Shown here: positions 16,753-38,115 of the stretch, one piece after another
How positions within the stretch are numbered: the first letter of the stretch is position 1
Layout of the letters: the number at the start of each line of letters is the position of its first letter
NCBI GenBank assembly: GCA_964646465.1
Contig: CAZYEN010000015.1
Coordinates: 1 to 63,987 of the forward strand
Direction of reading: 5' to 3'
Length of the DNA stretch: 63,987 bases
Source of the DNA: an uncultured Candidatus Saccharibacteria bacterium
Lineage (GTDB): Bacteria > Patescibacteriota > Minisyncoccia > SW-4-49-11
Translations under genes and position numbers: made by a program
The notes under the pieces: model-generated
What the model was told of the DNA's origin: nothing
The model's input: only the letters and a program-made list of their open reading frames with translations
Databases searched by the model: none

Positions 16753-17382
16753 TTATTTATTAAAATTATTCGGATGAAGAGAATCTAGTTCCCAATTTAT
16801 AGGGTTATTGATTATATATTCCTGTATACGAAATAAATCTTTATCATTTCTAATAATATGATCATAAAAAGATTTTTGCCAAAAAGTTCCATGTTTATTC
16901 AAAGTAGACTTCGTAGAGTCGGCGCCCTTAAACTTCGTAGAGTCGGCGCCCTCGCCGACACTTTCCCTCACACACCCACCGACACTCTCCTTAAACTCTC
17001 TCAAAGAAACCCTTTTAAACGAACTGACCACATCCCCCAAACTGACCTTTTTTCCCGTTACCAAAGAACAAGAATTCTCATCAAGTCCAATGATACCATG
17101 AAAATGATTCGGCATAATCACATATTCATCAAGAATAACATCCGAATAACATTGAGTTGTATTCAACCACACTTTTTCAATAATTTTTCCCAAGAGGTTA
17201 AGTTTGTATTTTGGACTTGATTGTATCGGCGAGGGTACCAATATAAACTCTGTGGTATTCTGTGTCGGCGAGGGCGCCGACTCTACGAAAATACATTGCA
17301 TATTGTAAGTGCATAAGGTGATAAAATACCAATATCCGCCTTGATATAAATTTTTGGATAAACGATTATTTTGTCGTTTCAT
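16753..17382 (-). CDS. RAYT / IS200-like HUH (Y1) transposase-family protein
   Basis: HUH motif MPNHFHGII. C-terminal block FWQKSFYDHIIRNDKDLFRIQEYIINNP, typical of REP-associated tyrosine transposases. Two loop regions are encoded by GC-rich hairpin repeats. Confidence 0.75.
   Translation of the reverse strand: MKRQNNRLSKNLYQGGYWYFITLCTYNMQCIFVESAPSPTQNTTEFILVPSPIQSSPKYKLNLLGKIIEKVWLNTTQCYSDVILDEYVIMPNHFHGIIGLDENSCSLVTGKKVSLGDVVSSFKRVSLREFKESVGGCVRESVGEGADSTKFKGADSTKSTLNKHGTFWQKSFYDHIIRNDKDLFRIQEYIINNPINWELDSLHPNNFNK
16907..16960 (+). repeat. Tandem GTAG-hairpin (REP-like) units inside the RAYT-like CDS
   Basis: ACTTCGTAGAGTCGGCGCCCT occurs twice with a 24-nt period. The second unit has the full hairpin GTCGGCG-CCCT-CGCCGAC (16942-16959), preceded by GTAG (16937-16940). 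Confidence 0.85.
17222..17289 (-). repeat. Inverted GTAG-hairpin (REP-like) units inside the RAYT-like CDS
   Basis: 17263-17289 is the exact 27-nt reverse complement of 16934-16960 (TTCGTAGAGTCGGCGCCCTCGCCGACA). A degenerate copy lies at 17222-17238. Confidence 0.85.
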
Positions 17383-30115: not shown

Positions 30116-31027
30116 TCATTCTGTACGGTTGACTATATAGTCAATTAGAGCTAATAGCGGCTCTGCTAGACCATTTTGGTTATATGGTTCCAGAGCCTGT
30201 TTAGACTCGGTCACTAGAGATTTAACACGCCTCCTACACCTCGCTAAACCCAATAACTTTAGATAAGCGGATTTATCAGCGATCAGATCCCTACCATCAG
30301 TCTTACCTAACACTTCAGCGTTAGCGGTGAAATCAAGTATATCATCACTTATCTGAAAGGCCAGACAAATACACTTGGCATAGACTCGCAGAGCCTCTAT
30401 CAAATTTTCATCTGCTCCACCGATTATAGCTCCACTGACTACAGAGGCGCGTAATAAAGAGCCTGTCTTATGGAGATGTATGTATTCAAGGGTTTCGAGA
30501 TTCACCTCCTTACCTTCACATTCTAGATCCACTACTTGGCCACCCATTAAACCAGGAGCACCCGAGGCAAGCGAAATCTCGCCTACAACCGCTAGCAAAC
30601 GCTCAGCCGGCACACCAGGACTACGCGAGATCATCTCAAAAGCACGGACTAGCAAGGAGTTCCCTGCTAAGATAGCCATTGCCTCCCCATAAACCTTATG
30701 ATTCGTTGGCCGACCTTGTCGTAAATCATAATTATTCATGGGTGGGAGGTCGTCATGTATTAGAGCTGAAGTATGAATCATTTCTAATGCTACCGCTGTA
30801 AGCATGGCTTGGTCTACTGCACCTCCAGCCAGCTCGCAAGCAGCTAGACATAATATCGGCCTTAACCGCTTACCATCATTCAGAAGGGAATACCTCATTG
30901 ACTCCCTAAGGGTATTTGGCATATCAATATCCAGACTCAATGCTTGATCAAGAGCCTCCTCAATCTGTACACGTCTATCCCCAATATATTTAGTAAATTC
31001 AAACTTATCAGAATTTTTACTAGCCAT
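30116..31027 (-). CDS. crtE: Polyprenyl (geranylgeranyl) diphosphate synthase, cyanobacterial CrtE-like
   Basis: Blocks GKRLRPILCLAACEL, LIHDDLPPMNNYDLRQGRPTNHKVYGE, HKTGSLL and FQISDDILD. I chose the start at 31027 (MASKNS...) because AAGGAG lies 9 nt upstream; the track ORF extends to 31087. G+C is far above its neighbours. Confidence 0.8.
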   Translation of the reverse strand: MASKNSDKFEFTKYIGDRRVQIEEALDQALSLDIDMPNTLRESMRYSLLNDGKRLRPILCLAACELAGGAVDQAMLTAVALEMIHTSALIHDDLPPMNNYDLRQGRPTNHKVYGEAMAILAGNSLLVRAFEMISRSPGVPAERLLAVVGEISLASGAPGLMGGQVVDLECEGKEVNLETLEYIHLHKTGSLLRASVVSGAIIGGADENLIEALRVYAKCICLAFQISDDILDFTANAEVLGKTDGRDLIADKSAYLKLLGLARCRRRVKSLVTESKQALEPYNQNGLAEPLLALIDYIVNRTE

Positions 31028-31209
31028 TTTAAAGAACTCCTTCTCGCTGAAGCGAGAATAGATTAACCCTACACTTATATCATACACTGCTCTCTTTGTC
31101 TATGTCTACGATGTTTCTCATCTTGTTGTATTGATATTGTATAGTATAATTGAATAAAATCTTTAGATTTGCTATAATTAAACTTAAATATAGCTTAATA
31201 TAATAAATT

Positions 31210-33573
31210 ATGCCACTTACATCAAAATATGAGATTACCGAACGCGAAGCCTATTGGCGTGAATTTTGGGCTAAACAGAATATCTATGCCTTTGATGAGA
31301 ATTCAGACAAACCAATTTTCTCCGTAGATACTCCTCCACCCTATGTCTCAGCGGATCACTTACATCCAGGACATATTATGAGCTATTCTCAAGCTGAATT
31401 CGTGGTACGATTCAAGCGAATGCAAGGGTATAATGTCTTTTACCCCATGGGATTTGATAATAATGGACTACCAACTGAGAGACATGTAGAAAAGAAATAT
31501 AAAATCAAGAATAAAGATGCTATTAGTAGGTCTGAATTTGTAAAATTATGTCTGGAGGAAACTCAAAAAGGGATACAAACATATCGTAATCTCTGGTCAC
31601 TTTTGGGTATATCCGTAGATTGGTCTAAGACTTATTCCTCTATCAATCCCCACTCTCAGAAAATCGCTCAGTGGTCATTTTTAGATTTATATAAAAAAGG
31701 CTTATTGACCCAAAGAGAAGAGCCTATAATGTGGGATATTAGCTTTCAGTCGGCTCTTGCTCAGACTGACCTAGAAGATTCAGAGCAGGACTCGAACCTA
31801 AATGATATAATCTTTAAATCCGAACAATCAGGAGAAGACCTAGTTATAGCAACGACAAGACCCGAGTTAATCCCAGCCGCAGTCGCTCTATTCTTCCATC
31901 CTGAAGATAGTCGTTATCAACATCTAATCGGGACTAAGGCTATTACTCCAATTTCAGGACATACTGTGCCAATTTTGACAGACGAGACCGTAGACAAAGA
32001 TTTTGGAACTGGTTTAATGATGGTTTGTACTTGGGGAGATAATGAGGACATAGCCAAATGGAAAAAATATAATCTTGAGACTAGACTCATATTCAATCAA
32101 AAAGGAATTCTAAATGATCTAGCTGGAGCTTATGCTGGAGGACATATTAGCAAATTAAGAAAGACTATAATAGAAGACTTGCAAAATCAAAACTTATTAG
32201 TCAAACAAACCCCTATCACCCACACCATCCAAGTCTCAGAAAGGTCAAGCACCCCAATAGAATTCATACTAACCAAACAGTGGTTTATCAATGTAGTAGA
32301 GCATAAAGAATGCCTATTAGAGCAAGGTAAAAAACTAAATTGGTATCCAAAAAGGATGTTCTCCATCTACTCTGACTGGGTTAGCTCACTCAAATGGGAT
32401 TGGTGTATTTCAAGACAAAGATACTATGGAGTCCCAATTCCAGTGTGGTATCATAAACAAACTGGAGAGGTGATTTTACCTCAAGAAGATGAATTACCCG
32501 TTGATCCAACCGAATATACTCCACGAGGTTATAAAGCTGAAGATTTAATCCCTGAACATGATGTACTAGACACCTGGATGACTTCCTCTATGTCTCCTGA
32601 AATTGGAGCTAAATTAGTATCTAATCCTGAGATTAGTGCTAAATTATTCCCATCTAGCCTACGACCCCAGGCCTTCGAGATCATCCGAACATGGCTATTC
32701 TATACAGTCACTAAAGCTTATTTTCATCATAATACTCTACCCTTTAGCGATGTGATGATATCGGGGCATGGTCTAGACAATCAAGGAAGAAAAATTAGTA
32801 AAAGATTAGGTAATTTTACCCCACCAGAGCAAACCATAGCCACTTATGGAGCTGATGCTATGAGATATTGGGCTACTGGTACAACTTTGGGAGAGAATAT
32901 CCGATATAATGAAGATGAAATAAAAAAAGGTAAGAAAACCGTCAATAAACTATTCAATGTTGGTAAATTTGCTGAATTACATTTACAAAATTTCAAGCTA
33001 CCAGAGCAAAAACCTGAACTAGAATTAATCGACAAATGGATTTTAGCTGAGTTAAATCAAACTATCCAAATAGCTACCGATAGCTTCGATCAATATGAAT
33101 ATTATAAGGCTAGAACCGCTGTAGATAGCTTATTCTGGAATAAACTTACTGATTATTATCTGGAGTTAATCAAATACAGACTATATGATGAGAATCCAGA
33201 AGGTCAAAAATCTCGTCTGGCAGCTCAGTATACTCTATATACAGTATTGGAACAGATACTAAAATTATATGCCCCAATATTGCCATTTATCACTGAAGAG
33301 ATATATCACGGACTATACACTAAGACTGATACTGAGAGCATCCATACATCCAACTGGCCAATCACCAATTCCAACTGGCAACTCTCTAGTGATGAACACA
33401 ATCTAATTACAGATATACTAGCAGTCATCGAAGCCGTACGGGCTTATAAGTCCCAGAATAGTATTTCTCTAGGAAAGGAAATCACGACTTATACCTATAC
33501 CTCTACCCAAGATTTAAGCCCATACGAAGACTTCCTAGCCAAAGCCCTCAGAGTTGGTAAATTGGTGAAGTAA
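31210..33573 (+). CDS. valS: Valyl-tRNA synthetase (archaeal-like short form)
   Basis: Class I aaRS with DTPPPYVSADHLHPGH (HIGH), KISKRLGN (KMSKS), an editing insertion and a GFDNNGLPTE block. The Val assignment rests on the N-terminal pattern and is not verified. Confidence 0.7.
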   Translation: MPLTSKYEITEREAYWREFWAKQNIYAFDENSDKPIFSVDTPPPYVSADHLHPGHIMSYSQAEFVVRFKRMQGYNVFYPMGFDNNGLPTERHVEKKYKIKNKDAISRSEFVKLCLEETQKGIQTYRNLWSLLGISVDWSKTYSSINPHSQKIAQWSFLDLYKKGLLTQREEPIMWDISFQSALAQTDLEDSEQDSNLNDIIFKSEQSGEDLVIATTRPELIPAAVALFFHPEDSRYQHLIGTKAITPISGHTVPILTDETVDKDFGTGLMMVCTWGDNEDIAKWKKYNLETRLIFNQKGILNDLAGAYAGGHISKLRKTIIEDLQNQNLLVKQTPITHTIQVSERSSTPIEFILTKQWFINVVEHKECLLEQGKKLNWYPKRMFSIYSDWVSSLKWDWCISRQRYYGVPIPVWYHKQTGEVILPQEDELPVDPTEYTPRGYKAEDLIPEHDVLDTWMTSSMSPEIGAKLVSNPEISAKLFPSSLRPQAFEIIRTWLFYTVTKAYFHHNTLPFSDVMISGHGLDNQGRKISKRLGNFTPPEQTIATYGADAMRYWATGTTLGENIRYNEDEIKKGKKTVNKLFNVGKFAELHLQNFKLPEQKPELELIDKWILAELNQTIQIATDSFDQYEYYKARTAVDSLFWNKLTDYYLELIKYRLYDENPEGQKSRLAAQYTLYTVLEQILKLYAPILPFITEEIYHGLYTKTDTESIHTSNWPITNSNWQLSSDEHNLITDILAVIEAVRAYKSQNSISLGKEITTYTYTSTQDLSPYEDFLAKALRVGKLVK

Positions 33574-33660
33574 AAGTTTATATTCAAAATAAAAAAGAAA
33601 AAAGCACCCAGTCATTGACTAGATGCTAAAAGATTGAACTCAGGAGGGTAACCCTCAAAA

Positions 33661-33808
33661 TGGGAGTGGCTGGATTTGAACCAACTCTTTTGGATTAAAT
33701 TCAAGATATTTGTGTGGGTGCCAAATATCCCGAAAGTGATTAGAGTTTCCAAGAGGCGCCTCTCTAATCCCAAAAGCTCCTTGAGATACATAAAGCATCT
33801 CCACCCCC
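33661..33808 (-). ncRNA. 148-nt tRNA-like RNA of unknown class
   Basis: A 7-bp acceptor GGGGGUG/CACUCCC with discriminator A. A canonical T-arm GUUGG-UUCAAAU-CCAGC. In place of the anticodon arm there is a long helix CUUUUGG(G)AUU/AAUCCAAAAG enclosing two perfect 8-bp hairpins (GAUUAGAG/CUCUAAUC and GAUAUUUG/CAAAUAUC). It is co-transcribed with the tRNA-Val. Confidence 0.5.
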
Positions 33809-33817
33809 GAGGGGAAA

Positions 33818-33889
33818 CGGCGGATGGTGGATTCGAACCCCCGACTTCCTGATTGTAATGCAGTCACTCTAACTCTGAGTTAATCCGCC
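33818..33889 (-). tRNA. tRNA-Val(UAC), degenerate
   Basis: Acceptor GGCGGAT/ATCCGCC, T-loop TTCGAAT and anticodon loop ATTACAA. The anticodon stem has only 3 Watson-Crick pairs (ACTGC/TCAGG), the T-stem has a G-A mismatch, and the D-loop lacks GG. Confidence 0.6.
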
Positions 33890-33903
33890 GTGAACCGTAT
33901 ATT

Positions 33904-33932
33904 ATTATAAGCATATTTTATTAATTGTCAAG
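33904..33932 (-). promoter_or_regulatory. Consensus sigma70 promoter of the tRNA-Val / tRNA-like RNA operon
   Basis: On the reverse strand: TTGACA (33927-33932), a 17-nt spacer, TATAAT (33904-33909). The tRNA 5' end lies about 15 nt downstream of the -10. Confidence 0.7.
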
Positions 33933-34051: not shown

Positions 34052-34321
34052 CTACGAAGGAGTCGGCCTAGAAACAAGGAACATTGCGTTCCGAGTGTCC
34101 TGTTGAGTGTCAGTGGGAATACCCAAGACACTACAGGCAGATCCCAAGAAAGAGTAATTCTGAAAAAATGCACAAAATAAATCAACTGAGATTTTGCTTT
34201 CAGCAGCATTCCTGTAAAACCAATACACCGAATCTCGCAATTCATCAAAACACTCTCTGGAGCGATTCAGACTATACTGATTGTAGCTCTCACCGATAAC
34301 TTGAATGAAAGGTTCCATCAT
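34052..34321 (-). CDS. Hypothetical protein (about 89 aa)
   Basis: GGAGG precedes the ATGATG at 34316-34321. A terminator CCCTC...GAGGG plus T-run lies at about 33985-34015 on the reverse strand. No motif is recognised, and the region is GC-elevated. Confidence 0.35.
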   Translation of the reverse strand: MMEPFIQVIGESYNQYSLNRSRECFDELRDSVYWFYRNAAESKISVDLFCAFFQNYSFLGSACSVLGIPTDTQQDTRNAMFLVSRPTPS

Positions 34322-34742
34322 TAAACCTCCACTGAAAAGGGACATTATTTTTATAGCATATAATGTTTTATTCTGCAAGAAAAAATCCCCCCAAACCATA
34401 ACCGGTAGGGAGGAGATAAGGATGGGTGTGAGTTATTGTGGCAGCAACTTATTTAAGGCCTCAGTAATGTCAATAGGAAAACTTATTCTATAGTACGGAC
34501 ATTGAGGATGAGCTCCTGTACGACAATCTATCAAAATCTTATCTAGCATTGTCTTATTAGCAATGATTTCATTATATATTGTTTACCAAACTTCAGCTTC
34601 ATTTTCTTCAGATATTGCTTGCCTAGCTTGTGCTTCTGTCAGTACTACATCCCAATGTTCAGCCGAGATGTAAAAGTCTATAAGTTGTGGTGTTGCCATA
34701 CACAGCCACCTTAATCAGGACACATAATTTATACCCTAAAAT

Positions 34743-35522
34743 CTAATTTTTTGCAAATATAGAATGAATATTTAGCCTTTTATTTACCCAAGCCCAATAC
34801 CCTACTCCAGCCACCACCAACCACCAGAATCCAAGCCAGCCTGCAATTCCAATCCAAAAGACCAAACTCCAGAGTCCAGATAAACTGAGCCAATAGGCAA
34901 TATTATTATCCAGACTTTTGCGTTTTGGAAATAATAGATAGAATCCCCAAAAAGCTAATAAACTAGTCACCATCCAACCAAAGAAATTCATCAAAGGTAC
35001 TCCATAATACCAGCCTTGAATTTCCCAAACCCAAAAACCTAAAGCCGTCGCTCCTGGGTCAAGAATCAAATCAAAAGTCGTCATCAAAATAGCTCCAACT
35101 AGAATCTTGAGCCACATTCTCTTGATGCCAAGCCTACTTACCAATATCAAACTAAAGAAAAAAATTGGCACCCAAGATAAACTCACCGTCCAAGGTACTA
35201 ACCCGAAGACTTTGAGATTCCCCAACACCTCCCCATATACAAAATTACTATATGGCCATCCCGTAACAATTGCAAAAGACTCTATCAAGAGTGGATAGAT
35301 GAATATTATTAATATTTTCCACCAATCTTGTCTCCAATTACACCATTTTGAGAGTCCATATAATATAGGCAGCGCAATCAAAACATTGGTCAACTGCGAG
35401 ATTACTTGGAATATCCAAAAGGGAAAAGGTAATGCTTCTGGCCTCAGACTAAAATAGACCACAAAGAATCCACTTAAAACCAAGATAATGGTTGGGATAA
35501 TTAGTAATAATTTTTTCTGCAT
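34743..35522 (-). CDS. Carotenoid biosynthesis membrane protein (DUF422 / CruF-like hydratase family)
   Basis: A 259-aa polytopic, Trp-rich membrane protein, divergent from a UbiA prenyltransferase and next to a CrtI-family desaturase. The family call is by architecture and context. Confidence 0.55.
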   Translation of the reverse strand: MQKKLLLIIPTIILVLSGFFVVYFSLRPEALPFPFWIFQVISQLTNVLIALPILYGLSKWCNWRQDWWKILIIFIYPLLIESFAIVTGWPYSNFVYGEVLGNLKVFGLVPWTVSLSWVPIFFFSLILVSRLGIKRMWLKILVGAILMTTFDLILDPGATALGFWVWEIQGWYYGVPLMNFFGWMVTSLLAFWGFYLLFPKRKSLDNNIAYWLSLSGLWSLVFWIGIAGWLGFWWLVVAGVGYWAWVNKRLNIHSIFAKN

Positions 35523-35557
35523 ATATGATATACTTATTATTATATAATTATATCATA

Positions 35558-36397
35558 ATGAGTATTACTAAACTATTACAAATTTCCAGACCCAGATTTT
35601 GGATTTATCTATTAGGACCCTATTTAATTGGGAGTATTCTTGCCTTTGATCCAATGCAGATTATCTGGCAATGGCAGTTTTGGCTAGGGTTTATCTATTT
35701 TACCCTACCTGCTAACCTTTTGATTTATGGGATCAATGATATTTTTGATTATGAGACTGATAAACTCAATCCCAAAAAACAAAATTATGAGGCTCTAGTC
35801 ACTCCTGCTGAGCATATTTCGGTTTGGACTGTAATTTTGCTAACTAATATACCTTTTATTCTAGCTATATATTGGCTGAACCCTTTGACTTTATTTGGCT
35901 GGCTGGGGTTTATTATCTTGGGAGTGCAATATTCAGCTTGGCCAATTCGAGCTAAAGCTAAGCCTTTTTTAGACTCTATTTTTAATATACTATATGTTTT
36001 CCCTGGAGTAATTGGCTATACTTTATTCGCTCAGAGCCTGAATTTAGATTGGCGATTATTATTGAGTGCTGGACTTTGGACTATGGCTATGCATACTTAC
36101 TCAGCAATTCCCGATATTGACACTGATAGACAGAGCAAAACTAATACTATTGCAACAATGTTAGGCTCAAAATCAACCCTCATTTATTGTTTTATCTGCT
36201 ATACCCTATCAGGAATATTTTTAGCTCAGTTTAGCACAACTCTTGGGGTTTTGATTGCCATTGTATATGGATTTATGATTGGCTTTAGCTGGTCTACTAA
36301 TACGGCTAAAATTTTCAAATTATATACTTATTTCCCCTTACTTAATACTGTTATTGGGTTTATTTTATTCTGGAGTATTATGATTTGGTATAGGTAA
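35558..36397 (+). CDS. UbiA-family prenyltransferase (lycopene-elongase LyeJ-like)
   Basis: Asp-rich motifs NDIFDYETD and IPDIDTDRQ, with about 8 TM helices. The start at 35558 (MSITKLLQISRPRFW) is preferred over the track start 35525. Confidence 0.7.
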   Translation: MSITKLLQISRPRFWIYLLGPYLIGSILAFDPMQIIWQWQFWLGFIYFTLPANLLIYGINDIFDYETDKLNPKKQNYEALVTPAEHISVWTVILLTNIPFILAIYWLNPLTLFGWLGFIILGVQYSAWPIRAKAKPFLDSIFNILYVFPGVIGYTLFAQSLNLDWRLLLSAGLWTMAMHTYSAIPDIDTDRQSKTNTIATMLGSKSTLIYCFICYTLSGIFLAQFSTTLGVLIAIVYGFMIGFSWSTNTAKIFKLYTYFPLLNTVIGFILFWSIMIWYR

Positions 36398-36612: not shown

Positions 36613-38115
36613 CTACCCCTCACCTCCTAATGGGCTGTCTTGTTTGATTTTAGCGATTCTTTTATAGACCATTTCGGCACTAATTAACTGGATTGGGACT
36701 CCAATTCCTGGATTGGTACCGGCTCCGACATAATATAAGTTTTTGACTTTTTTGGAATAATTATTTGGTCTGAAGATAGCTGTTTGATTAATAGTATGGG
36801 CAAGTCCGAGAGCGGTTCCTTTATAAGCATTATAATCTTGCTGGAAGTCTTTGACACTATATAGTCTTTTATAGATAATCCTGTCTTTCAGGTCTGTAAT
36901 ATCCATCTCTTCCTGCATAATAGTTAGGATTTTATCGGCATAAGCTTCAAGATGCTCTTCAGTATATTCCAATCCTGCTGCAATAGGTACTAGTACGAAT
37001 AAATTTTCATCTCCTTCTGGAGCTACGCTAGGGTCGGTTTTAGATGGAGCACAGACATATAGAGATGGATCTTCCGGCCACATTGGATCATCGAATATTT
37101 GTTTGAAGTTAGTTTTCCAATCTTTTGAGAATAGTAGATTATGATGTACTAAACTGTCTACCTTACCTTTTATTCCTAGATACATAATCAAGGCTGATGG
37201 CGCTAGGACTTTTTTATCCCAATATTTTTCATCATATTGTCTATTTTCGGCTGGTAATAAATTCATCTCCGTATGAGTCATATCGGCATTAGAGACAACT
37301 ATATCGGCTTTGACTATTTCTCTTGATTCTAATTCTACTCCTACGGCTTTGCCTTGCTCAACTATAATTTGCTTTACACCATTTCCGCTGACTAGGTTAA
37401 CCCCGTTCTTCTTAGCTATATTAACTAAAGCTTCGGTAATTTTATACATACCTCCTTGTGGGTAAAATACTCCCATATTAAAGTCAATATGATTCATTAT
37501 ACTGTATAGAGCTGGGGTATTATATGGGGAGCTTCCGAGGAACACGAGTGGATATTGTAGTACTTTTTTTACTAAATCATGCTTAAAATATTTACTGACA
37601 TAGGCATCCATATCACTGAATACTGATAATTTGGAGCCTTCTATCATTGTCCTGAAGTTGATAAAATCAAAAATAGAATCATAATTCTTATACATAAAAC
37701 CTTCTTTGGCAATTTCATATTGCTGGCGGGCCTTATCTAAATATTCTTTTAGTTTATCCCCTGCCCCCGGTTCTAATTCTTCCAAAACAGGAATATCCCG
37801 CTCCAAATCAGAGAACATATCGATGACTTTATTATCATCTTTGAAAAATATTCTATACGATGGTTCCAGTCTAATTAACTCTAGATGATCTTCCACCTTC
37901 TCTCCCATAAATTCAAAAAAGTTCTCAAATACATCGGGCATCAGATACCAAGATGGGCCCATATCAAACCTAAACCTTTCAGCTTCAAAAATATTAGCTC
38001 TACCTCCTAGATTTTGGTTTTTCTCGTATAGACTGACTTCATAACCTTTACGGGCTAGAATACAAGCGGTAGCTAATCCCCCTATTCCCCCACCTATAAT
38101 GATGACTTTTTGCAT
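36613..38115 (-). CDS. Phytoene desaturase-family carotenoid desaturase (CrtI/CrtD-like)
   Basis: N-terminal IIIGGGIGGLATA FAD motif, the C-terminal YYVGAGTNPGIGVP CrtI signature, 500 aa. Confidence 0.85.
   Translation of the reverse strand: MQKVIIIGGGIGGLATACILARKGYEVSLYEKNQNLGGRANIFEAERFRFDMGPSWYLMPDVFENFFEFMGEKVEDHLELIRLEPSYRIFFKDDNKVIDMFSDLERDIPVLEELEPGAGDKLKEYLDKARQQYEIAKEGFMYKNYDSIFDFINFRTMIEGSKLSVFSDMDAYVSKYFKHDLVKKVLQYPLVFLGSSPYNTPALYSIMNHIDFNMGVFYPQGGMYKITEALVNIAKKNGVNLVSGNGVKQIIVEQGKAVGVELESREIVKADIVVSNADMTHTEMNLLPAENRQYDEKYWDKKVLAPSALIMYLGIKGKVDSLVHHNLLFSKDWKTNFKQIFDDPMWPEDPSLYVCAPSKTDPSVAPEGDENLFVLVPIAAGLEYTEEHLEAYADKILTIMQEEMDITDLKDRIIYKRLYSVKDFQQDYNAYKGTALGLAHTINQTAIFRPNNYSKKVKNLYYVGAGTNPGIGVPIQLISAEMVYKRIAKIKQDSPLGGEG

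Follow-up and report, generated by a model that had tools for sequence, protein, structure and literature searches.

The DNA downstream of the valyl-tRNA synthetase gene valS in a contig of an uncultured bacterium of the Patescibacteriota (CAZYEN010000015.1; the whole stretch analysed, 63,987 nucleotides long with a G+C content of about 35%, is referred to here as the window) raises the question of what two adjacent tRNA-like genes may provide if not tRNAs that read codons. An initial annotation had recognized a degenerate tRNA-Val(UAC), here called gene 1, and behind it a 148-nt RNA of unknown class, here called gene 2, whose shape it likened to the tRNA-like domain of transfer-messenger RNA (tmRNA). 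The answer held here to be fairly probable is that the locus is an operon, accessory and variable among strains, whose two tRNA-derived RNAs no longer decode, gene 1 being of Val type and gene 2 stemming from tRNA-Pro. Searches of the literature on Patescibacteria, Parcubacteria or the candidate phyla radiation (CPR) turned up no account of such tRNA-like RNAs; the family is real, conserved and apparently undescribed, and appears to consist of non-decoding tRNA-derived RNAs.

The operon occupies the minus strand as a single promoter-to-terminator unit, in agreement with the initial annotation. Its sigma-70-type promoter (33904..33931) matches the consensus TTGACA and TATAAT at 12 of 12 positions, as had been claimed, with a spacer of 16 nt in place of the 17 nt originally given. 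A 14-nt 5' leader and start region follows (AATATACGGTTCAC; 33890..33903), in which transcription probably begins and of which the TATACGG beside the -10 element is kept in relatives. Gene 1 (33818..33889) is a 72-nt degenerate tRNA-Val(UAC)-like cloverleaf with discriminator G; it is separated by 9 nt (UUUCCCCUC; 33809..33817, read from the sequence) from gene 2 (33661..33808), a 148-nt allele in which a branched insert replaces the anticodon loop, and the corresponding spacers of relatives are U-rich and 5-10 nt long. Between gene 2 and the end of the unit lies a trailer hairpin, GAGGG-UUAC-CCCUC (33643..33656), followed by an intrinsic terminator identified by a terminator scan (33593..33627), with an 11-bp stem (33627-33603) and then a T run. 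The valS gene (31210..33573, plus strand; 787 aa; Pfam tRNA-synt_1 and Anticodon_1) is a neighbour outside the RNA unit and is indeed convergent with it; its product is a class I ValRS-type synthetase whose named homologues are valine--tRNA ligases, mostly from Patescibacteria. Control of valS by a T-box was considered and rejected, as no T-box was found in the window.

Loci of relatives, designated below by L-numbers, were fetched through relatives of the window ValRS and by a metagenome scan for the pattern TTGACAA-N15-TATAAT-NN-TATACGG, in which 3 of 18 matches were real operons. The operon was found in 15 further distinct genomes or contigs (16 loci including the window), always between valS and a cruF-like gene, and its carriers belong to one freshwater Parcubacteria/Paceibacteria clade with ValRS proteins at least 85% identical. 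The window ValRS, for which a look-up of the exact protein gave no record, shares 85-94% identity with proteins from metagenome contigs and about 55-59% with those of named Patescibacteria, and a scan of species-representative genomes placed its close relatives in freshwater Parcubacteria/Paceibacteria/Minisyncoccia metagenome-assembled genomes. The initial annotation had regarded absence of conservation as fatal to its proposal; homologues with covarying helices were found, and this objection falls. The promoter string TTGACAA-N15-TATAAT-NN-TAT(A/G)CGG is retained in nearly all of the 15 other operons, the exceptions being L030, where the -35 element reads TTGATT, and L114, which ends at the contig edge. 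The trailer hairpin GAGGG...CCCUC is kept in L007, L010, L015, L029, L030, L113 and L114, and in the diverged form AGGG...CCCU in L037, a degree of conservation that exceeds what a spacer needs; 3' processing of gene 2 would leave this hairpin on an RNA of about 65 nt, which could presumably be a small RNA in its own right, comparable to the tRNA 3' external transcribed spacers of E. coli. A leader hairpin, CUGAC-loop-GUCAG, located about 25 nt upstream of gene 1, marks one sub-lineage (L005, L008/L031, L009, L024, L032, L034 and L035) and is missing from the sub-lineage of the window.

Over the 16 loci, gene 2 is found in 11 cases with a 3-4-nt loop, in two with a long hairpin and in three in the 148-nt form. 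The short form of the 11 loci, 68-72 nt in length, has C1-G72, A73 and canonical D and T arms, and its anticodon stem is capped by the 3-4-nt loop (cUUCGg and cUACGg at three loci each, cUAUg at two, and cUUAGg, cACAUg and cAAUg). When ten short sequences are folded as a cloverleaf with a 4-nt-loop arm, 97.6% of positions expected to pair do so and nine pairs are changed on both sides, a value that none of 500 shuffles and no slid control reaches. L113 and L032 bear a long anticodon-arm hairpin on a short-form body; that of L113 has 16 bp and no GGCGCC motif, whereas in L032 a stem of 9 bp supports a 20-nt loop in which GGCGCC is found. ARAGORN misses short gene 2 RNAs or reports them as 'tRNA-???' with a two-base anticodon. 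A covariance model built from them, R1, matches short gene 2 RNAs within the close clade only, and its best match outside the family is a genuine tRNA-Pro(GGG) (60.8 bits) with the same CGGGGCG acceptor stem; gene 2 is a derivative of tRNA-Pro. Since R1 also aligns end to end with the long form of L030 (38.7 bits), the long and short forms constitute one family, and because relatives hold this tRNA-Pro-derived gene at the same position, the 148-nt RNA is to be seen as the allele with the largest insert. A stable D stem and a D loop of 9 nt, the features that EF-P recognises on tRNA-Pro, are furthermore retained in the short form, and EF-P is in this regard one candidate partner.

The 148-nt form of the window has a fully paired acceptor stem, GGGGGUG/CACUCCC (7/7, including G4.U69), discriminator A and a T arm, GUUGG-UUCAAAU-CCAGC (33669..33685; 5/5 paired), that covaries in L030 and L114; these parts, as well as the 9-nt distance to gene 1, are as first described. 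With a minimum free energy of -57.1 kcal/mol (z = -6.2), it is more stable than every one of 200 shuffled sequences. Its insert, about 80 nt in size, starts from a 4-bp remnant of the anticodon stem, UUGG/CCAA (CUGG/CCAG in L114, a compensatory change), which opens into hairpin A (33738..33769; GAUUAGAG...CUCUAAUC, with a GGCGCC tip at 33755-33760) and hairpin B (33700..33734; 13 pairs and a 9-nt loop). The two 8-bp hairpins of the initial annotation and its palindrome, AGAGGCGCCUCU, are present in gene 2, whereas the 10-bp helix proposed beneath them had to be abandoned, since it shares AUU with the first 8-bp hairpin so that both cannot form, and homologues support only the 4-bp base stem (YUGG/CCAR) and two hairpins. 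The long-form homologues, L030 (145 nt) and L114 (115 nt), have the same GGGGGUG/CACUCCC-A acceptor stem and ordinary U8-A9. Four compensatory pairs distinguish the window from L030, to which L114 adds the compensation in the base stem. In the comparison with L030, one lower-stem pair of hairpin A changes from A-U to G-C, and in hairpin B a G-C pair is exchanged for A-U and a U-A pair for G.U. In L114, hairpin A is a continuous 12-bp stem with the cap G[GCGC]C and hairpin B has shrunk to 4-6 bp. At the position of the D arm a 7-bp hairpin, GAGAUGC-UUUAU-GUAUCUC (33783..33801), is predicted by folding; it is peculiar to the window allele, since a D stem of the usual kind, with 4 bp, occupies this position in L030 and L114. 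The claim that the larger RNA lies outside standard models was confirmed, as ARAGORN called nothing in its tRNA and tmRNA modes and no Rfam family matched up to E = 10.

The window allele also carries a single-stranded, Shine-Dalgarno-like AAGGAG (33777-33782, minus strand) between the D-position hairpin and the base stem, and GGAG-N7-AUG opens a 59-aa open reading frame (ORF; 33612-33791); neither the AAGGAG nor the ORF start is conserved in L030 and L114. Coding potential was rejected, because for the ORFs that run across the RNAs (33655-33867 and 33612-33791) the start is not conserved in L030.

Gene 1 aligns with genuine tRNA-Val and is, by its sequence, a descendant of a Val-type tRNA. 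In the window it scores 49.8 bits with the Rfam tRNA model (gathering score 29) and is not called by ARAGORN, and the irregularities reported for it initially were all recovered: the anticodon loop AUUACAA, of 7 nt with U33 and A37, sits on a stem (ACUGC/UCAGG) with only three Watson-Crick pairs, the T stem GGGGG/CCACC has a G.A mismatch (4/5 paired), and the D loop AGAGUUA is without GG and hence without G18G19, a pair of bases that gene 2 of the window does not carry either. Its orthologues show 7 of 7 acceptor pairs everywhere except in L005 (6/7), and discriminator G is found in nearly all copies; when the alignable copies are taken together with two genuine tRNA-Val, pairing in the cloverleaf reaches 96.3% and both partners have changed in 16 pairs. 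The anticodon arm, in turn, differs from strain to strain: the loop is AUUACAA (UAC) in the window, AUGACUC (GAC) in L030, L010 and L114, AUCACAC (CAC) in L015, UUGGCAA (GGC) in L024 and UUUCUAA (UCU) in L113, it has 8 nt in L009 and 4-5 nt in L008 and L034, the arm is reduced to a CCA-GUU-UGG stub in L032 and L035, and longer inserts are present in L005, L007, L037 and L029. Because these arms are unrelated among strains, the conserved part of gene 1 is the tRNA body and not codon specificity, and since the arm is as variable as that of gene 2, neither RNA is likely to decode.

Whether such RNAs are selected or simply decaying can be judged against neutral sites of the neighbouring gene. In eight genomes the four-fold degenerate sites of valS have a mean identity of 0.50 (range 0.37-0.75), compared with 0.78 (range 0.60-0.96) for gene 2 in the same genomes. 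Between L009 and L037 the values are 0.38 for the four-fold sites and 0.90 for gene 2, and between the window and L030 the four-fold sites are at 0.57 while the 148-nt RNA is 83% identical. The consensus promoter, moreover, persists in almost every copy whereas the DNA upstream of it is unalignable. Identity above that of four-fold sites, together with the compensatory changes, indicates that these are selected RNAs and not neutral pseudogenes.

Purifying selection holds the promoter and the 'top half' of each RNA, made up of an acceptor stem of 7 bp, the discriminator and a T arm whose loop is UUCRAAU, and in most alleles the D arm is held as well; the anticodon arm is unconstrained, and that of gene 2 is either sealed by a very stable 3-4-nt loop or bears inserted hairpins. 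The unit carries strong expression signals of the tRNA type. RNase P and RNase Z would release both from the primary transcript, and CCA would be added post-transcriptionally, as the operon encodes none; the genuine tRNA-Leu(CAA) of the window genome (6450-6532, minus strand; 60.3 bits; near-consensus promoter TTGACA-17-TATACT) is likewise without an encoded CCA and must receive it after transcription. The products would be abundant, stable, L-shaped tRNA mimics unable to pair with codons, and they would be bound, for example as a competitor or decoy, by a factor that reads the acceptor/T-arm half or the elbow and not the anticodon. This last step follows by elimination, since with codon pairing lost the RNAs would have to act through proteins or RNAs that read these parts. 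Several points weigh against this view of two selected, non-decoding RNAs. Processing, CCA addition and abundance of both RNAs are inferred, and no conserved protein partner adjoins the operon. One relative, L001/L040, with a ValRS 87.5% identical, has no operon within 4 kb of the locus, which implies that the RNAs are dispensable. Recent recombination could partly explain the high identity between distant strains, and the window alleles of both genes could be in decay, gene 1 having accumulated stem mismatches and gene 2 having lost the GG of its D loop.

A further-reaching proposal, which is rather doubtful, sees in the operon a polymorphic 'tRNA-mimic cassette' whose diversity is maintained by conflict, its RNAs serving as decoys or antidotes against tRNA-targeting nucleases or tRNA-binding factors. 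That such nucleases or factors would belong to phages, hosts or competitors is just as tentative, and so is the notion of the anticodon arm as a fast-changing interface, with alleles of gene 1 and gene 2 that appear to reassort between strains. If true, this would amount to a new class of bacterial RNA-based protection.

Of the explanations that compete with non-decoding mimics, the one that makes most of the inserts is a natural tRNA scaffold, in which the tRNA body supplies processing and stability while the inserted hairpins A and B are the working part; they could bind a protein or pair loop-to-loop via the self-complementary GCGC/GGCGCC tip. Such a scaffold, in either mode of action, is not very likely, and yet for the long alleles a payload role of the GGCGCC-tipped hairpin is a serious rival, as this tip recurs in four different insert alleles (window, L030, L114 and L032), its flanks stay self-complementary (AGAG..CUCU, AGAG..CUUU, AUAG..CUGU), both hairpins covary, and GGCGCC is rare in the genome, with 1.4 copies expected in the window and six observed. 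It leaves the 11 payload-free alleles unexplained, however: 11 of the 16 loci have nothing but a 3-4-nt loop, the insert of L113 lacks GGCGCC, and hairpin B goes from 13 bp to 4-6 bp in L114. Apart from self-matches and short matches due to chance, no antisense target for the loops was found in the window, nor was another copy of any insert found in the 0.9 Mb searched, a result that also led to rejection of an origin of the inserts as mobile hairpins (miniature inverted-repeat transposable elements, MITE). An origin from phages was discarded as well, motif scans of viral contigs having given either nothing or chance matches. That the two genes are functionless relics, left over from tRNA-Val and tRNA-Pro genes that were redundant and now decay at a hot spot of recombination, is unlikely, even though the anticodon arms are ruined in many ways, the operon is missing from L001/L040, gene 1 of the window is mismatched in its anticodon and T stems, and ordinary tRNA genes, including the convergent tRNA-Val(UAC) of L075, stand by valS in distant Patescibacteria. 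Decay would not be expected to preserve stems through compensatory changes, to keep identity far above that of neutral sites or to spare a perfect promoter in almost every strain amid unalignable flanks, and the hyperstable closing loops that gene 2 repeatedly has do not resemble random damage.

The possibility that gene 1 continues to function in this strain as a tRNA-Val(UAC), albeit a poor one, and that the operon exists for this purpose with gene 2 as a passenger, draws on its 7-nt loop with U33 and A37, on its Rfam score and on ARAGORN, which calls the L030, L010 and L015 orthologues tRNA-Val with the anticodons GAC or CAC. It is decidedly unlikely, given that the discriminator is G and not A73 as in the genuine tRNA-Val(UAC) of L075, that G18G19 is missing, the T stem has its G.A mismatch and the anticodon stem only three Watson-Crick pairs, and that orthologues elsewhere carry GGC, UCU, an 8-nt loop or a 3-bp stub; as orthologous anticodons differ or vanish, decoding is not what is conserved in gene 1. 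Non-proteinogenic tRNAs offer a precedent for RNAs that are aminoacylated for non-ribosomal transfer in cell-wall, lipid or peptide synthesis, and carriers of this kind, kept off the ribosome by the missing anticodon, would make use of the intact acceptor stem, discriminator and T arm, the parts required for CCA addition and recognition of the acceptor end. Identity for ValRS and ProRS depends strongly on the anticodon, however, and it is missing here, as are G3.U70, the identity element for Ala, and a long variable arm; no transferase gene is linked to the operon in the neighbourhoods examined. Aminoacylation without anticodons seems unlikely, and this carrier role is accordingly given very little credence. 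The tmRNA-like topology of the initial annotation was not upheld, and a miniature tmRNA or an intron-containing tRNA is exceedingly improbable. While the acceptor stem, the T arm and the discriminator A do recall such RNAs, as does the large insertion that separates these parts, relatives carry a tRNA-Pro-derived gene in this place, with a D stem in L030 and L114, and neither ARAGORN in tmRNA mode nor Rfam returned anything; the wobble pair is G4.U69 rather than G3.U70, there is no conserved tag frame, and the sole ORF through the RNA has no start counterpart in L030. The insert of about 80 nt has no group I match, and because insert-free alleles have 3-4-nt loops, removal of an 'intron' would not restore an anticodon loop.

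Two non-decoding, tRNA-derived RNAs under selection being the preferred explanation, the history of their locus is also of interest. In Patescibacteria that are further removed, valS is accompanied by ordinary tRNA genes, which in L075 include a convergent pair of tRNA-Leu and tRNA-Val(UAC), plausibly the ancestral state. The closest ValRS relative of the window, L037 (94%), carries a 71-nt form of gene 2, as does L029, which is 95% identical to L030, and the 148-nt form occurs in genomes that are not sisters. Types of gene 1 and gene 2 combine differently among strains, showing that the locus is mosaic, and it probably became so through recombination. In L001/L040 a 1136-aa type IIG restriction-modification gene (MmeI_Mtase, Eco57I, Type_ISP_C) directly follows valS, and other strains have nadE or small ORFs there, which identifies the valS-cruF interval as a variable island. 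Small ORFs of about 90-115 aa are found beside the operon in the window (34052-34399, minus strand), L030 (6871-7146), L029 (7414-7713 and 6274-6546), L032 (6454-6717) and L007 (6001-6282); they share the C-terminal motif (F/Y)L(V/S)(S/G)R(P/L)TP(S/D/Y), and the window copy has no Pfam match. An obligatory protein partner was rejected: for the 115-aa ORF upstream of the operon in the window, a set of 5.8 billion proteins yielded a single homologue, whose contigs are without the operon.

With respect to other features of the window and its relatives, carotenoid-type genes (30116-31087, 34743-35522, 35525-36397 and 36613-38115) are kept in relatives; they encode a polyprenyl synthase along with a CruF-like 'carotenoid biosynthesis protein' (PF04240), a UbiA prenyltransferase and an enzyme of the FAD amine-oxidase/desaturase type. 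The set resembles a C50-carotenoid (bacterioruberin-type) cluster, which is unexpected in a reduced CPR genome. The 787-aa ValRS is short for a bacterial ValRS, and ValRS genes 50-52% identical occur in L087, L093 and L100, metagenome-assembled or single-amplified genomes labelled Pacearchaeota, Woesearchaeota and Nanoarchaeota, reflecting either CPR-DPANN gene sharing or mis-binning. The short ValRS and the C50-carotenoid-like genes had suggested an archaeal origin with an intron, an idea dropped since relatives of the ValRS belong to the Patescibacteria and an anticodon loop is lacking in alleles free of the insert. GC-rich palindromic repeats at 16900-16960 and 17255-17290 (e.g. TCGTAGAGTCGGCGCCCTCGCCGACA and CGTAGGGGCGACC...GGTCGCCCCTACG) lie within an ORF of 209 aa (16753-17382; no Pfam match) between the type I restriction genes hsdR and hsdS and supply three of the six GGCGCC sites of the window; similar repeats, with weak 'whalefall-1' Rfam matches, flank the operon in L029, L034, L037, L111 and L113.

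Comparison with known classes of RNA helps to place the family. Both genes have the 7-bp acceptor stem and the T arm with UUCRAAU loop of a canonical tRNA; a 7-nt anticodon loop on a 5-bp stem is missing, gene 2 having no anticodon loop at all, G18G19 is missing as well, and tRNA finders do not recognize the pair, the Rfam tRNA model calling gene 1 only. ARAGORN labels for operon genes in relatives (tRNA-Val, tRNA-Ala, tRNA-Ile or 'tRNA-???') would distort tRNA inventories of CPR bacteria and inferences on their genetic code, and call for caution in annotation. The 148-nt RNA resembles the tRNA-like domain of tmRNA in its acceptor stem, T arm, discriminator A and lack of an anticodon, but differs in its wobble pair, which is G4.U69 in the window, L030 and L114 in place of G3.U70. 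It also has neither a tag ORF nor pseudoknots, its homologues in L030 and L114 possess a real D stem, and the tmRNA models of ARAGORN and Rfam (E = 10) do not detect it. An intron-bearing tRNA, whether of group I or bulge-helix-bulge type, is not indicated, as the 4-bp base stem opens directly into hairpins and no Rfam intron family matches.

The pseudo-tRNAs come closer, since the RNAs of the operon are tRNA-derived, seemingly unable to decode, and conserve no usable anticodon arm. It has been reported that tRNA-Other of Bacillus cereus is a pseudo-tRNA without a function in translation whose deletion gives a phenotype, and it is likewise a chromosomal tRNA-derived gene beside a variable island (PMC3399842). 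In contrast to this single Firmicute gene, the present case is a two-gene CPR operon with a conserved consensus promoter, many alleles and an anticodon loop that is systematically closed or replaced. Non-decoding tRNA-shaped RNAs are otherwise scattered cases, while here two are kept clade-wide in ultra-small CPR bacteria, and this offers a clean setting, provided by nature, in which to study how the 'top half' of a tRNA is used outside translation. In mammals, mascRNA and the MEN-beta tRNA-like small RNAs are tRNA-shaped, have no functional anticodon, and mature through RNase P and RNase Z with addition of CCA, a route that the operon RNAs may share; the eukaryotic RNAs are cleaved off the 3' end of a long non-coding RNA and have no sequence relationship to them.

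A tRNA-like module is also part of the bacterial Y RNA YrlA (bioRxiv 10.1101/312249; Rfam RF02553), a non-coding RNA that, like those of the operon, imitates a tRNA in its D/T elbow and acceptor region. The RF02553 model has no match in the window and gives L032 33.5 bits, against a threshold of 69. Within the neighbourhoods of the operon in the window and nine fetched relatives, where valS, cruF, nadE, small ORFs and restriction-modification genes are found, there is no rsr (Ro60) or rtc. In YrlA the ends of the RNA lie in the Ro-binding stem and the acceptor-like helix is closed, whereas the acceptor stem holds the ends of the operon RNAs. The alleles of the window, L030, L114, L113 and L032, finally, have the architecture of the engineered 'tRNA scaffold', a laboratory construct for recombinant RNA expression in which the anticodon loop gives way to a grafted foreign hairpin; the alleles described here are natural, and most of them are without a graft, so that the operon can be regarded as a natural counterpart of that design.

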